A DNA stretch of 64,000 nt from a virus (taxonomy: Duplodnaviria; Heunggongvirae; Uroviricota; Caudoviricetes), in the IMG/VR virus record IMGVR_UViG_651053022_000007, positions 1 to 64,000 of that record; one strand, given 5' to 3'. The stretch's first letter is position 1. Each line of letters begins with the position of its first letter. Made by a program: the position numbers. This document shows positions 22,101-28,100 of this stretch, one piece after another.

Positions 22101-25100
22101 TTGAGGGGTCAATATTTGACGGGTCAACTGTTAACGGGTCATTTTTTGCCGGGCTAATTTTTCTTTTCGGTTTATATGACTCACGCGCCGCCGCCGCAGC
22201 TGCTTCGAGTTTTTCCACATTAAGCCGATAGATATTGCTTACATTACGCCCACCGACCTTACGCTCTTCCTTCGTCAGCCAGCCCTCTTTCGCCAGTTCT
22301 GCAATAGCCGATTTCACTGTGGATTCACTTCTTGCACCGATCTGACGCCGGATAGTTTCAATGGCAGGCCATGACACGCCCTCGTCATTGCTGTAGTCTG
22401 CAAGACGGGCCATAACCGCCACCCTGGATAAGATCATGCCGGTGAAGGCGCACCCTTCCCAGACAAGACCATGAAGCTTGCTGCTCATAAAACCCCCGAA
22501 CACCGTGCTTTTAGTGCATCACCACAGCATTCCCTGCCGGGCCGCCGCGATTCATCTGGTCATACAAAACAACCGCTGACGCAACAAAATCATCGACATC
22601 CTTCACCAGCCGATCCCTCCGTTCGACGATCTCACGGTAATATTCAGAACTGTGGCTGCGCATACGGGCCACCAGCAAAGGCGGCATCGCCTTTTCGATC
22701 GCCGGTAACAGAGCCTGCATTTTTTCAACAGCATCAGGGGTGTCTTTATCCAGCCAACGGAAAATTTTCTGGGTATTACGGGCCAGGGCTTCCGGATGGC
22801 TGTCGTCATACAGTTCCGGGAACGTCATTCCCAGCTCGAAATACGCTTTGGTAATTTTCGCAGCCGGCACTTTTTCGCCGTCCGGATGCGCCCAGACATT
22901 CATCGCCATGCGGATGTGTTCATGCTTGATTTTCATGAATCATTCTTTCCTTCGTTCGAGGTGCTATCCTGCTTCTTGTAAAGTTCTGGGTTGTATTTCA
23001 ATTCACCGTTAGTAATTTCATCCAGTTCCATTGCGCGAAGTTTGGGAATAACTGCTTTCCACCGCACAACAGCCACATGTGAAATTCCAAGAGCCTCAGC
23101 TACTAGTCGCTTTTTTTTGAAATAGCGCAGAACATCATCTTTGAACATAAAACTCTCCTGTTATTTCGAGCAGAAGGGTAACAATAGTTACATAACAATG
23201 TCAACCATAGCAACATCACTTGGTAGTAACATTGGTTACATGAAAAACACTATCAGCGAACGTATTCGGAATCGTCGAAAAGACGTTGGATTAACCCAAC
23301 AGCAGGTTGCGAAAGCAATCGGCATATCTCGTGTATCCGTAACAAAATGGGAAAATGGCTCTTCAAAACCTGACGGTGAGAATTTGTATCTACTGTCAAA
23401 ATTGCTTTCCAAATCTCCTGAATGGATTCTTTATGGAAAGGACGGTCACGATAAAACCGATGATCTGCGTCTGAATCAGTACCCTTACATTAGTGACAAC
23501 ATCGCCCGGTTGCCCGTTTTAACGTGGGAACAGGCTGGTTATTGGGATATGAGTTGTCCAGTAACCAAGATTCCTGGTATTAAGAACTGGGTTGATGTCA
23601 TGACAAAAACCGCTGAAAACTCTTTTTTATTGCATGTTGAGGGAGATGCGATGACAAACTCTAACGGCCTCCCAACCATCCCCGACGGATCTACCGTGCT
23701 GATCACACCATGCTCAAGTAACATTAGAGAACTGGTGGGAAAAATAATCTTAATCCAATTGGAAGGAACGCCAAACGTAACACTAAAAAAAGTTGCGATT
23801 GACGGACCAAACATCTATCTGTTGTCACTGAATCCGCTTTACAAACCCATCGAACTGAATGGTGGTTACACCATTAAAGGTAAAGTTTCACAAATACATC
23901 AATACTTAGACTGAGTCAGAACCCGCATTCATTGCGGGTTTTTTATGCCCTCAAATGTACCTTTTGCAACATTGTATTGACTCGAAAGGTAACTCTTGTT
24001 ACCTTAACAACATACCAACCCACCCCGCCCCACAGAACGCCGGGCAATACTTCGAGTTACCAAGCAGTGGTCAGGGGGTAAGTAGCCAGCCCGAGGCGTA
24101 AGAACATGACGGCAGGGTTCAACTTTAATAACTATGCAGCAGGTTTTTGTTCCGCTCCCCCGGCGTTAAGGGGAAATGAGGTCAGCATGGATACTATCGA
24201 TCTTGGCAACAGCGAATCTCTGGTATGTGGCGTGTTCCCCAACCAGGACGGCACGTTCACCGCAATGACGTATACCAAAAGCAAAACGTTTAAAACCGAA
24301 AATGGTGCCCGTCGCTGGCTGGAAAGAAACTCAGGTGAGTGATATGGATTTCGACACAATCATGGAAAAGGCTTACGAAGAATACTTCGAAGGCCTTGCC
24401 GAAGGCGAAGAAGCTCTCAGCTTCAGTGAGTTTAAACAGGCGCTTTCCAGCTCGGCAAAATCTAACGGCTGATAAGCGAAGCAGCACCGCGAGGAATCAG
24501 TATGCAGAAACGAGAACCCGTCATCATCGCGCCAGACTATACCGATGATGAACTTTATGAGTGGATGCGCCAGAAAATTAATGCAGCGCAGGATCTGAAA
24601 TGGGCCAATGAAGCCAGGACTAAGCAGGCTGAAAATCTGTCCGCTCTGGAGCAGGATATCACCAGGCTGGAAAAAGCAGCGGCATTAAGCATTGCCAGAA
24701 TGGTTACATACCCGCGTTAATAGCTAACCAACGAAGCTAAGGTTGGTAATTAAGGAGTTCTCCACGGGTGAGGTGGAGTGCGTGCGCCGGACACGGGTGA
24801 GCATCCGGCACTGACAGTTTACTGAAAGGATATTTCCATGAAAAGTCAGACCATAACGCGAAAGCGCACGGCGAGGTAGCTGGTTCATAGATAGCCTGTC
24901 GTTAAATTTTCGTCGACCGTGCGCTTCCGGTTGTGGCACTACGCGAAATGGCGCGGCGGTAAGTATGGCGGGGTTATTCCTTCCCCGTTGAGGACACCGG
25001 GTTGTCAGGTTGACCATACGCTTAAGTGACAACCCCGCTGCAACGCCCTCTGTTATCAATTTTCTGGTGACGTTTGGCGGTATCAGTTTTACTCCGTGAC

Positions 25101-28100
25101 TGCTCTGCCGCCCTTTTTAAAGTGAATTTTGTGATGTGGTGAATGCGGCTGAGCGCACGCGGAACAGTTAAAACCAAAAACAGTGTTATGGGTGGATTCT
25201 CTGTATCCGGCGTTAATTGTTAACTGGTTAACGTCACCTGGAGGCACCAGGCACCGCATCACAAAACTCATTGTTGAGGGCGCGATAATGAAAACGTTAT
25301 TACCAAACGTTAATACGTCTGAAGGTTGTTTTGAAATTGGTGTCATGTTTTCCCTGCTTCATAATCATCACGCCATGCTTCAGCATCAGCGGCACTTCCA
25401 CCGCGTAACTCTGCATAATCCATTAACAGTTCATGCCATTCTTCAAAACTGGCGTTATATTTAGTTGAACCAAAATCAGCCATTTTGTTCTTCCTCTTCG
25501 TCTTTTATTTCGTGGTATGAGTAATTGCAGTAGTTAAAGAAAATATCTTTAGCTTCATCCTGTATTTCATCTGGTGTTGCATCATCATCCACTTCGAATT
25601 CATCCTCGAAATCTCCACCGGCTATTCCCGTTTCAATAATTATTTTGAATTTTCGCATTTCACTACCGCCCTTTCGGACGGCCTCCTGATGTTCTGAGGG
25701 TGCAGGAATCCCTCCGGTTAAGGATTTAATAAAAATCGTTTCTGATTTAAATCTTCAGTATTTAGTTGTTAGTCGGTTTATAGCCTTTATGCTTCGGCCT
25801 TATTTCTCAGCCATACACAAACCGGGCCATCTTCGGTGTCATGTATTGAACCAATAAACCATCCATTGCCCTCTGGTCGTTCCGGTTCCCATGCAGAAAT
25901 ATCAGCATCACACGCATCAAGGTCAGCACATCCTTCATCTCTGAAGCAGAGGACGTATTGAAGATTATTTTCCTCCATCCAGGCGTTAAACTCTTCCGTT
26001 GAAATATATTCCCGACCGTCACAGAATTTTTCATATTCAGGATGCGTCCAGTAGCCATATTCATCACGTACTACTGGTATTTCTTTAATTTCATTCATTT
26101 CTGTTCTCCCACGTTTTCAGACTTTCACCACAGAACGGACAAAATGAAACCCGAACTGGTAATTTAGAAAATTCACCGGAACGCAACATCACAAAATCAG
26201 GACCGCGAGTTAAACTCTCATTCCAGATTTTGTATATCAGCAGACCTTTTCGCATCGTGTATTCAGCATCACGCTCAAGGGACTTTGCCACACTGCGCAT
26301 ATCAACGGCACCACATTCTGCTTTCAGTTCCGAAGCCATCTCATGCCCGGCGGCAACTAACCCTTTGATATTACTTTCCATCTTTACCCTCGCTTATCCA
26401 CATAACTTATTGATAACATTGATAACTAAAAAGATCGTCGATTCAGAACTCTTCGATATTCCAGCCACCACCTGCTTTCTTTGGTTTAACCGTTACCCCG
26501 ATGATTCGGAACGGATACTGATCTGCGGCGACTTTGGTTTTCACCCTGGCGTCGTCGGTCCAGAAACCTTTCACTTCGTGCAGTTCCATCTCGCCGGTGG
26601 CGAGCATCACAGCAAAATCGGGCGTATAGAACGTGTTGTCAGCTAACCGCAGCTTGATACCCTCAAATCGATACCAGACGATTTCTCCTGCACGTTTACG
26701 CAGCTCAAGGTGCTGGCAATACGCAGATTCTGTTTTGTTCATCTGACCTGTTTTGAGTCGACCAAGAGCCTGTATCTGTTTTCTCATGATTTACCTCTGA
26801 GGTAATTAAAAACCACATAAGACACGAAATCAATAGATTTTAGAATATTTTATTACCTAACAGGTAATTGTCGAGGCGTAAAAAAATGCGCTATCGCGCT
26901 GGTATTACTTGATAAATCCTGCCGCCTTTCCCCGCCTGTATTCCTCCATCAGCCACTGCGCCGGTGTTATTCCCCCAAGGGTGGCGGCGTTAGGCATGCA
27001 CCCGAAACTTCGCCCTGGTGGATGGTAAACGTCTCTCCCTGTGTCCGGAGGCGTACTCATGGGCTCTGGCTTTGCCTGTATGCTGATCACCGGATCGGGT
27101 ATCTGCTGTCCGGAAGCCACCTTTTTCGCCCAATCATCGAGCAGCCTGCGTGCGTGTTTCTCAACCTCAATCTCGCTAAGCTGGCGCTGATACATTGCAC
27201 GGCGGGTATCACATACGACCCAGTACATAACCGGATGTCGCCACGGGAATCTTTCGGGACCACCAGGATATAAACTTTTTTCCTTGCTGTACCGGTGAAA
27301 CTCCGCCATCACATCGTCAATGGTGACGCCAAGAACCATCTTGCTGTCTTTGCACCACTTGATAAATTGCCCTGGAGACGGCCAGAACGGAGATTCACTG
27401 GCGCGGGCGTGGCGCATACCAGCAGAAACCTGTTCACGGGTTCGGATCCCCCCTTCGGCAAACGCAGCAATCCACTGCTGTTTTGCAGCAACTTCCTGCT
27501 CTGGCGTCTTCAGGTTGGTTACCACTGCCGCCGGAAACAGTTGTTTCAGCTGTTTAAAAAGGGCATCAACAAGCCTCTCTGCTGACATGTTCACCACATT
27601 GTCATTGTTGACGTACTGATGCTCATAACCTGACATGCGAGAAAGGGCTTCTCCGTCACGGTTTTGTATCGCGGTAAAAACGTTGTTCACAAGAAATCCT
27701 CCCATGCTTCAGGGCTGTTCCAGTGCGGAACGTTGTTATCAGGTAATGTTGATTGCTTCTGTCTGCTAATCTGCAGCCGCCTTGCCAGCTTCTGCTCCCA
27801 CTGTGCCTGATGGTATGCCTTACCCTCAGCCATCCAGTAAATTCTGAACTCTGCAAGTTCCTGTGCCGTTGGCAGACTGTCCAGGTAGATCCCCTGCAAT
27901 GAGCTTTTCCGAAGAAAGTCATCTGATGGCTGCCATTGTTCATGCATGACAAATTTGCCTAATTGCCCTGGCCCACCAGGAGGAACAAAGTTATTCATCA
28001 CGGCGTTGTTTGCTCCGGGGTCATGAGGCACAGAATCCCCGCTTTTTGTCCTGCTCTCCCTCTCTTGGTTAAATGACTGGTTATATGACTGGTTCTGGAT

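Follow-up and report, generated by a model that had tools for sequence, protein, structure and literature searches.

When a stretch of phage DNA carries no convincing open reading frame (ORF) on either strand but is strongly folded, is it an RNA gene, the remains of a protein gene, or a scar left where two phages have been joined? This question is raised by positions 24721-25340 of the 64,000-nucleotide (nt) stretch analysed here (IMG/VR record IMGVR_UViG_651053022_000007, the whole of which is referred to as the window), for which an earlier note, made from the sequence, had proposed a structured noncoding RNA, a decayed gene such as sieB, or a recombination or attachment (att) junction. Based on the results described below, the segment is almost certainly the spacer between ydfC and dicB in a dicBF operon of the Qin type; this untranslated spacer is carried by a lambdoid prophage remnant of ~5 kb and contains the small RNA (sRNA) DicF together with its processing leader. 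The first of the three proposals is thus borne out by the Rfam covariance search, which found DicF, and by the published precursor and the leader that accompany it.

Identity of the segment between ydfC and dicB

The segment is identified as the ydfC-dicB spacer containing dicF because of its colinearity with E. coli K-12 and an independent match to the DicF model of Rfam. In a direct alignment, positions 1648470-1649666 of K-12 MG1655 correspond without any gap to positions 24149-25345 of the window, the two sequences being colinear and 97.6% identical, and mismatches to K-12 are completely absent from 24942 to 25254, i.e. in DicF and its flanks. The homology to K-12 begins only at 24149. The genes ydfA, ydfB, ydfC, dicF and dicB, annotated in this order in the K-12 Qin prophage, each have one counterpart in the window, where ydfC stops at 24720 and the ATG codon of dicB lies at 25288, leaving a spacer that extends from 24721 to 25287. 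Within it, the Rfam model RF00039 scores 76.7 bits over positions 25062-25113 (E = 3.4e-16), its threshold being 48, with model positions 1-52 covered in full, and the same match was obtained when the search was repeated on the whole window. The 53 nt of DicF in the window are identical to the experimentally studied dicF of K-12, and the RNA sits between ydfC and dicB as in other dicBF-type operons, with dicB here represented by its first 19 codons only. When positions 24400-25700 were used as a megablast query, matches were seen in 4,836 of 5,426 complete E. coli genomes, the best of them showing 99.6% identity over query positions 1-946, and the genes beneath these matches are annotated as ydfB, ydfC and dicB. 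Further, in the phage Tritos, DicF is annotated at an equal relative position. The dicF locus is therefore an already known, textbook prophage sRNA gene; as it illustrates, a structured stretch that is free of ORFs in the PL operon of a lambdoid phage can turn out to be an RNA gene already described.

The properties that had drawn attention to this segment are accounted for in part. The absence of ORFs holds for 24721-25287, where the ORFs on the minus strand match no PHROG family; however, the last 53 nt of the segment as first delimited (25288-25340) are coding and comprise the first codons of dicB. All of the stems named in the earlier note are present, viz. CCGGA at 24787 with TCCGG at 24804, GGGTTGTCA at 24999 with TGACAACCC at 25027 (a perfect helix of 9 bp), and GGGG at 24970 with CCCC at 24983. 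The strong folding is likewise real, the minimum free energy (MFE) being -217.4 kcal/mol in comparison to -186.5 +/- 5.9 in 100 dinucleotide shuffles (z = -5.25), none of which was as good, and the minus strand of the segment also folds well relative to shuffles (z = -4.74). However, the segment had been described as GC-rich, and this description is not correct, as its GC content of 0.495 (24721-25340), or 0.511 for the spacer, compares with 0.508 for the whole window; the adjacent ydfA-C genes have a value of 0.491 and only the right flank is lower (0.464). Similarly, of the statement that the segment lies between two modules, it is the right edge that stands, since a boundary is located at 25345/25346, whereas the segment itself lies inside the operon of the left module and not, as had been supposed, downstream of that PL-like operon.

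The processing of DicF has been studied in K-12, where the sRNA derives from the polycistronic dicBp transcript, RNase III is responsible for the 5' end of a species of 190 nt and RNase E for the 53-nt DicF, and transcripts corresponding to both ydfABC-dicF (1,146 nt) and ydfABC-dicFB-ydfD (1,608 nt) exist (Ragunathan et al. 2023, PMC10448788). The precursor sequence presented in Fig. S1 of that work matches window positions ~24877-25113, and, going by the sequence, the published 190-nt precursor would correspond to about 24929-25118. If 190 nt are counted back from the U-run of the terminator, then the RNase III cut would be placed at about 24924-24929, on the 3' side of a long imperfect hairpin. 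The 5' end of DicF (25061) falls within an AU-rich linker, UGUUAUCAAU/UUUCUGG, in which the slash marks this end, whereas its 3' end is formed by an intrinsic terminator consisting of a hairpin (25076-25088/25098-25112) followed by UUUUU at 25114-25118. These helices, as predicted in the MFE fold, fit the above model of processing.

In the window, ydfA, ydfB, ydfC and the spacer would be transcribed from a PL-like promoter downstream of a gene for an S24 repressor. If the window copy behaves in the same way as the 97.6%-identical locus of K-12, then cleavage of the long hairpin by RNase III would yield a 190-nt species made up of a 5' domain (referred to here as element X), the linker and DicF. 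A cut by RNase E in the AU-rich linker would then give the 53-nt DicF, with the intrinsic terminator of the RNA as its 3' end, and transcripts that read through this terminator would run via an STnc100-like leader into dicB. The product would act as an antisense sRNA of the Hfq type, repressing ftsZ, manX and other mRNAs, and the same targets are expected because the DicF of the window is identical to that of K-12. DicF is a classic prophage sRNA, known for blocking cell division and for rewiring sugar metabolism. The PL-like promoter is probably controlled by an SOS-cleavable S24 repressor, because half-sites of the operator-like palindrome GGTAACTCTTGTTACC found in the promoter region recur between the repressor and cro genes in the form GTAACAATAGTTAC (23178-23191).

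Conserved RNA domains on the two sides of DicF

In divergent copies of this locus, the ~115 nt upstream of DicF remain conserved and alignable across the different types of cassette, whereas the body of DicF does not. This conserved region is element X, a four-way-junction domain in which an outer stem formed by GUUGUGGC and GCUGCAAC (24930-24937/25037-25044) encloses three arms. The first arm is a CCGCG...CGCGG hairpin (24941-24945/24952-24956); the second (24957-24960/24996-24999) has a hypervariable tip, which is the GGGG/CCCC hairpin noted above; and the third (25000-25007/25027-25034), which is the 9-bp stem of the earlier note, carries an invariant loop of 19 nt, GGUUGACCAUACGCUUAAG. When 15 diverse copies were aligned with MAFFT, 92% of the cells are paired and 9 pairs have changed on both sides, compared to 3.5 +/- 1.3 in shuffled alignments, none of 500 being as high, and slid controls of the same alignment gave 1-5 such pairs. 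With 56 distinct sequences, 96.5% of the cells are paired and 9 pairs (28 cells) have changed on both sides (0 of 500 shuffles as high; over the two alignments the shuffles average 3.2-3.5 such pairs), but this larger alignment was made with the covariance model and hence leans towards the structure by construction. The covariance model for X scores 147 bits in the window and 109 bits in phage P1, and no Rfam family overlaps 24930-25044 at E <= 1. The possibility that X is a tRNA or a tRNA-like element was considered and rejected, as ARAGORN and the Rfam tRNA model find in the window only the tRNAs at 19558 and 59817. In the modelled folds, the outer stem of X and the lower portion of the RNase III hairpin would be in competition, and cutting of the hairpin would therefore leave this stem free to form.

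Element X is also found in the absence of DicF. In P1 and P7, it occurs a short distance downstream of the C1-controlled promoter Pban, and the GenBank record of P1 marks a "dicF-like region" there; in cdtI, 2H10 and CPS-53-like prophages, it lies ~350 nt after the stop codon of cI and ahead of yfdP; and in the phage pPE4, it is present between the genes for DicA and Kil. A hairpin and a T-run are seen 49-99 nt after X in all 87 of the distinct downstream contexts (204 copies), and the bodies of the short RNAs that follow X are of ~10 unrelated or diverged types, among which canonical DicF is the commonest. Because every context of X carries this hairpin and T-run after a variable body, the unit is read, from its sequence organization, as a cassette that would consist of conserved X, a variable small RNA and a terminator. 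The DicF model of Rfam does not recognise the payloads of P1, cdtI or pPE4. Terminator-ended RNAs unrelated to DicF were observed after X in P1 (68722-68900, ...CCAGUUUGCCCAUCUUCGGGUGGGCGUUUUUU) and in cdtI (UUUGGCGGUACCAG...CUGGUACCGCUCUUUUU), and the RNAs that follow X in P1, cdtI and 2H10 are candidates for unannotated sRNAs heading the ban and PL operons.

Based on this distribution, it is proposed tentatively, and with some way to go before it can be called probable, that X is an uncatalogued, functional cis-acting RNA, which heads a modular cassette at or near the starts of repressor-controlled early operons (viz., among the lambdoid phages examined, those of the Qin, cdtI/CPS-53 and pPE4 types, and the ban operon of P1/P7), with DicF as only one of ~10 interchangeable payloads, and that it acts either as a scaffold for processing by RNase III/E or for stability, or as a device resembling the put sites of phage HK022. 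Of these roles, that of a scaffold for processing or stability requires the fewest assumptions. An X module that is supported by covariation goes beyond the literature that was reviewed, and its presence in front of different small RNAs makes it a testable candidate for how phages express or swap sRNAs in long untranslated leaders.

On the other side of DicF, between its terminator and the ribosome-binding site of dicB, a second structured domain is present, which contains three or four hairpins in the MFE fold. The Rfam model RF02076 matches positions 25125-25265 with 38.4 bits against a threshold of 47 (E = 8e-6, model positions 21-154), and related copies of the domain score 33-39 bits with the same model. 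Because the score is below the Rfam threshold, the domain in the dicB leader is best called STnc100-like and not a member of this family. An alignment of 12 copies comprises 34 pairs, which are 97.3% paired and 8 of which show compensatory change, none of 500 shuffles being as high, whereas slid controls are 28-41% paired. The domain is also found upstream of kilR in Rac, where it is ~80% identical, in strain 98228 before an isrK/C4-Rha module that has been inserted in front of dicB, before an SPFH gene in P1-like plasmids, and before tciA in P1. In the Rac prophage of E. coli strain C2, a DicF-like match of 39.1 bits (threshold 48, E = 2e-5) was seen between sieB and kilR, where it immediately precedes the STnc100-like leader of the latter gene; Rac, from which X is absent, may thus carry a diverged RNA in the DicF slot before its own inhibitor of cell division.

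The breakpoint within dicB and the competing explanations

The identity to dicB ends at 25345, the DicB family profile phrog_1251 is matched at positions 1-22 of 62 only, and the remainder of the gene was not found anywhere in the window. A non-homologous join thus interrupts dicB after codon 19, and DicB cannot be made. From position 25346 onwards, identity is 100% to a lambdoid prophage found in ST131 strains, which is referred to here as phage 2 (25346-64000), the left module being phage 1. The join, which reads ...GGTGTCA/TGTTTTCCC..., contains no att-like core and shows only a loose GGTGT similarity, and it brings two genes together tail to tail: a 58-amino-acid (aa) gene of phage 2 lacks the 12 codons at its 3' end, and its reading frame is now closed by a TGA within the dicB sequence. 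The intact counterpart of phage 2 in strain 1446 lies between guaA and yfgI, and in comparison to it the phage 2 of the window is circularly permuted, with the lysis end of the prophage coming immediately after its integrase gene (34383-35639). Positions 35600-35846 correspond to the phage side of attL and positions 35830-35996 to the phage side of attR, and because these two sides overlap in a 17-bp core (35830-35846) common to attL and attR, phage 2 is in the excised (attP) topology and has been opened inside the 58-aa gene. As far as can be judged from the sequence, such an arrangement would result from a circular phage genome recombining illegitimately into dicB, and a second junction is predicted outside the window, ~590 bp past its end. 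A join that is real would represent a mobile, SOS-inducible source of DicF without DicB, adjoining an IncF conjugative backbone.

Exact matches to a 34-nt string across 25345/25346 are absent from the GTDB species representatives, from IMG/VR and from the JGI metagenomes, and no record spanning the junction was found among complete E. coli genomes, phages and plasmids. A look-up of the truncated 46-aa protein returned short contigs only, none of which holds the join to dicB. Three or four of the short-read contigs that were checked (metagenome/Logan) end at, or not more than 2 nt from, ...GGGAAAACA, i.e. the breakpoint of the window in the 58-aa gene; three more contigs are listed with the 46-residue cut product at the contig end; and one contig has a change of CCG to TAG at the position of the breakpoint, i.e. 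a stop produced by point mutation. Contig ends of this kind look like a recurrent polymorphism or a branch point of the assembly graph. Sequences flanking the join are also repeated in the left module, which has a full-length copy of the junction-truncated gene (20364-20564, minus strand), a direct repeat of 95% identity (20404-20552 and 25347-25495) and a second repeated block of 94% identity (20554-20636 and 25648-25730), and the nin-region genes common to both modules could mediate homologous exchange.

The breakpoint bears on the suggestion that the segment itself is a recombination or att junction between two phages, i.e. scar or attachment DNA. A real and sharp breakpoint, at which both flanking genes are truncated, is present at the right edge of the segment, and to this extent the suggestion was well founded. 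However, all of 24149-25345, and with it the 620 bp in question, is colinear with intact dicBF operons such as that of K-12 Qin, an att site at the junction is rejected, the attP of phage 2 being intact at 35830-35846, no att-like core exists at the join, and the junction recurs in none of the collections searched, so that it is very improbable that the segment as a whole is of this nature. A decayed protein gene is, if anything, less probable still. Such a gene could be sieB-like, as the equivalent slot in Rac, between ydaF and kilR, is filled by sieB on the minus strand, or it could be represented by the minus-strand ORF of 111 aa (24724-25059); the minus strand of the window has a stop-free stretch of 130 codons, and some phage records call a "hypothetical protein" over the homologous DNA. 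However, tblastn with the SieB protein of Rac (163 aa) gave a best E value of 2.7 in 24400-25700 and no match in the window at 1e-3, and the proposal of a decayed sieB is thus rejected; the sole coding remnant is the 5' end of dicB (25288-25345). Neither the 111-aa ORF nor the second minus-strand ORF overlapping the stretch (25089-25346, 85 aa) matches any PHROG family, and the "hypothetical" ORFs that have been annotated vary in extent between records. Further, between homologous copies there are indels of 1, 2 and 4 nt, which would break a frame and are located in hairpin loops, and the substitutions preserve the pairing of the RNA and not a reading frame; neither a conserved frame with synonymous-biased substitution across divergent copies nor peptide evidence was seen.

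A different kind of alternative concerns the role of X and not the identity of the spacer, viz. that X is a cis-acting leader similar to put of HK022, which lets the polymerase pass the DicF terminator and Rho sites in ~570 nt of untranslated RNA. Such a role is attractive because X sits behind early promoters and before a terminator: in P1/P7, in the cdtI/2H10/CPS-53-like phages and in pPE4 it is found just downstream of a repressor-controlled early promoter, with no gene for an N-like protein annotated in the stretches of these phages that were examined, and the hairpin and T-run always follow within the 49-99 nt given above. The covariation in X, and the fact that it can be aligned across cassette types unlike the body of DicF, agree with such a function, as does the existence in K-12 of read-through transcripts that include dicB (PMC10448788). 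However, the covariance model for X has no match at E <= 1 in the early region of HK022 (21000-33500), X forms a four-way junction and not two stems, and in Qin-type operons it lies ~950 nt away from the promoter. As a scaffold for RNase III/E processing or for stability accounts for the same facts more simply, a put-like function of X is considered unlikely.

The reading of the segment as the ydfC-dicB spacer of a Qin-type operon, with DicF and its processing leader, has also to be weighed against several points that speak against parts of it. The expression and the RNase processing of the window copy are carried over from its identity with K-12; the length of 190 nt is the only guide to the site of RNase III cleavage; and the promoter and its control by the repressor are deduced from sequence features, while scans for promoters and terminators gave results not above chance here, with a simple promoter scan calling no PL-like site. 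In addition, because the junction is absent from all of the collections searched, an assembly chimera at 25345/25346 is possible, although the identity of the spacer is unaffected by it.

The features of the operon, together with those of the plasmid backbone, are listed in Table 1. Positions 1-11400 of the window are an IncF conjugative-plasmid backbone directly adjoining prophage DNA, and the window may derive from a plasmid-phage cointegrate; in the E. coli and plasmid collections, no record covers more than ~43% of it. The backbone is followed by a transposase gene of the IS4 family, an autotransporter fragment and tRNA-Val. The autotransporter fragment (16399-18048, minus strand), which has Pertactin and Autotransporter beta-domains, lies between the IS4-family transposase and the prophage remnant, and the plasmid matches over 16156-20128 carry the annotation Sat, a serine-protease autotransporter toxin. 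The remnant of phage 1 spans only about 20.25-25.35 kb, and tRNA-Val(TAC) (19558-19633) is ~600 bp from its left edge. Inside phage 2, tRNA-Arg(TCT) (59817-59893) is located between the terminase and portal genes, as in the ST131 prophage. Phage 2 also contains isrK (77.9 bits) and C4 antisense RNA (77.7 bits) in tandem at 40826-41011, upstream of a gene with a BRO-N domain (41059-41754), and this unit is an antirepressor control module like immI of P1. The isrK/C4-Rha module that is inserted in strain 98228 between the STnc100-like domain and dicB matches the module of phage 2.

Table 1. Positions of the features discussed in the text, in window coordinates
Feature	Position	Strand	Basis or remark
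traI	994-5826		
AS-traI RNA	3843-3919		
ParB-like gene	7123-9072		
psiA	9558-10277		
sok	10627-10798		
Repressor gene, helix-turn-helix (HTH) + Peptidase_S24 (LexA-type)	23141-23914		terminator 23919-23945
Operator-like palindrome GGTAACTCTTGTTACC	23988-24003	+	PL-like promoter region, downstream of repressor terminator
ydfA-like DUF1391 gene	24106-24342	+	ORF; phrog_751; DUF1391 protein annotated at homologous loci; first gene of PL-like (dicBp-type) operon
ydfB homologue	24344-24472	+	gapless K-12 alignment (K-12 1648665-1648793); ydfB annotated under megablast matches
ydfC homologue, 72 aa	24502-24720	+	phrog_1744, E = 3e-39; last protein gene before spacer
Long imperfect hairpin, probable RNase III substrate	24851-24936 (24851-24857/24930-24936; 24862-24871/24917-24926)	+	MFE fold
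Element X, 5' domain of 190-nt DicF precursor	24930-25044	+	alignments, covariance model, pair counts
AU-rich single-stranded linker with RNase E site	25045-25060	+	position from K-12 dicF 5' end; RNase E dependence from PMC10448788
DicF sRNA	25061-25113, with U-run to 25118	+	Rfam RF00039; K-12 dicF 1649382-1649434 maps here
STnc100-like multi-hairpin domain, 5' leader of dicB	25125-25266	+	Rfam RF02076 sub-threshold; closing 15-bp helix 25127-25141/25252-25266
dicB', first 19 codons of cell-division inhibitor gene	25288-25345	+	identity to dicB ends at 25345; phrog_1251
3'-truncated copy (46 aa) of 58-aa lambdoid nin-region gene, phage 2	25343-25483	-	phrog_519; full gene WP_000753053.1

Comparison with known systems

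The closest known system is the dicBF operon of the K-12 Qin prophage. The gap between ydfC and dicF is 341 nt in the window and 340 nt in K-12, that between dicF and dicB is 174 nt as in K-12, and the DicF sequences are identical. However, the repressor of the window is of the S24 (LexA-like) cI type, whereas K-12 has DicA; dicB is cut at codon 19, and the window lacks ydfD, int and the exonuclease gene; and the module adjoins IncF plasmid DNA, whereas the operon of K-12 is chromosomal. What is added to the known locus by the present analysis is the anatomy of the spacer, an illegitimate join by which DicB is lost while DicF is retained, and a leader of DicF that is a conserved RNA module common with P1. 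The STnc100-like domain shares with STnc100/PasD an equal outer stem and a CCNGG-AGGCA-CCNGG hairpin, an architecture that is backed by covariation; however, the published copies are located downstream of stx2 or near Fels-1 genes, whereas here the domain forms the leader of dicB (and that of kilR in Rac).

With the ban leader of P1/P7 (P1 NC_005856, 68791-68892), the window shares element X at ~77% identity, including the invariant 19-nt loop and with compensatory changes in the stems, followed by a short RNA ended by a terminator, and an STnc100-like domain is present further downstream in the P1 leader as well. However, in P1, X starts ~30-50 nt after Pban and precedes an RNA without relationship to DicF; next come tRNA genes, tciABC and ban, where the window has dicB. 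The put RNA of HK022 is a processive antiterminator that acts in cis, the class being characterised by binding to the zinc-binding domain of the RNA polymerase beta' subunit and by terminator read-through. The put sites of HK022 and X are both structured cis RNAs downstream of repressor-controlled early promoters, with terminators beyond them and no N-like gene annotated in the stretches examined. However, put is ~70 nt long and consists of two stems, in contrast to the four-way junction of ~115 nt formed by X, for which any antitermination activity would be hypothetical.

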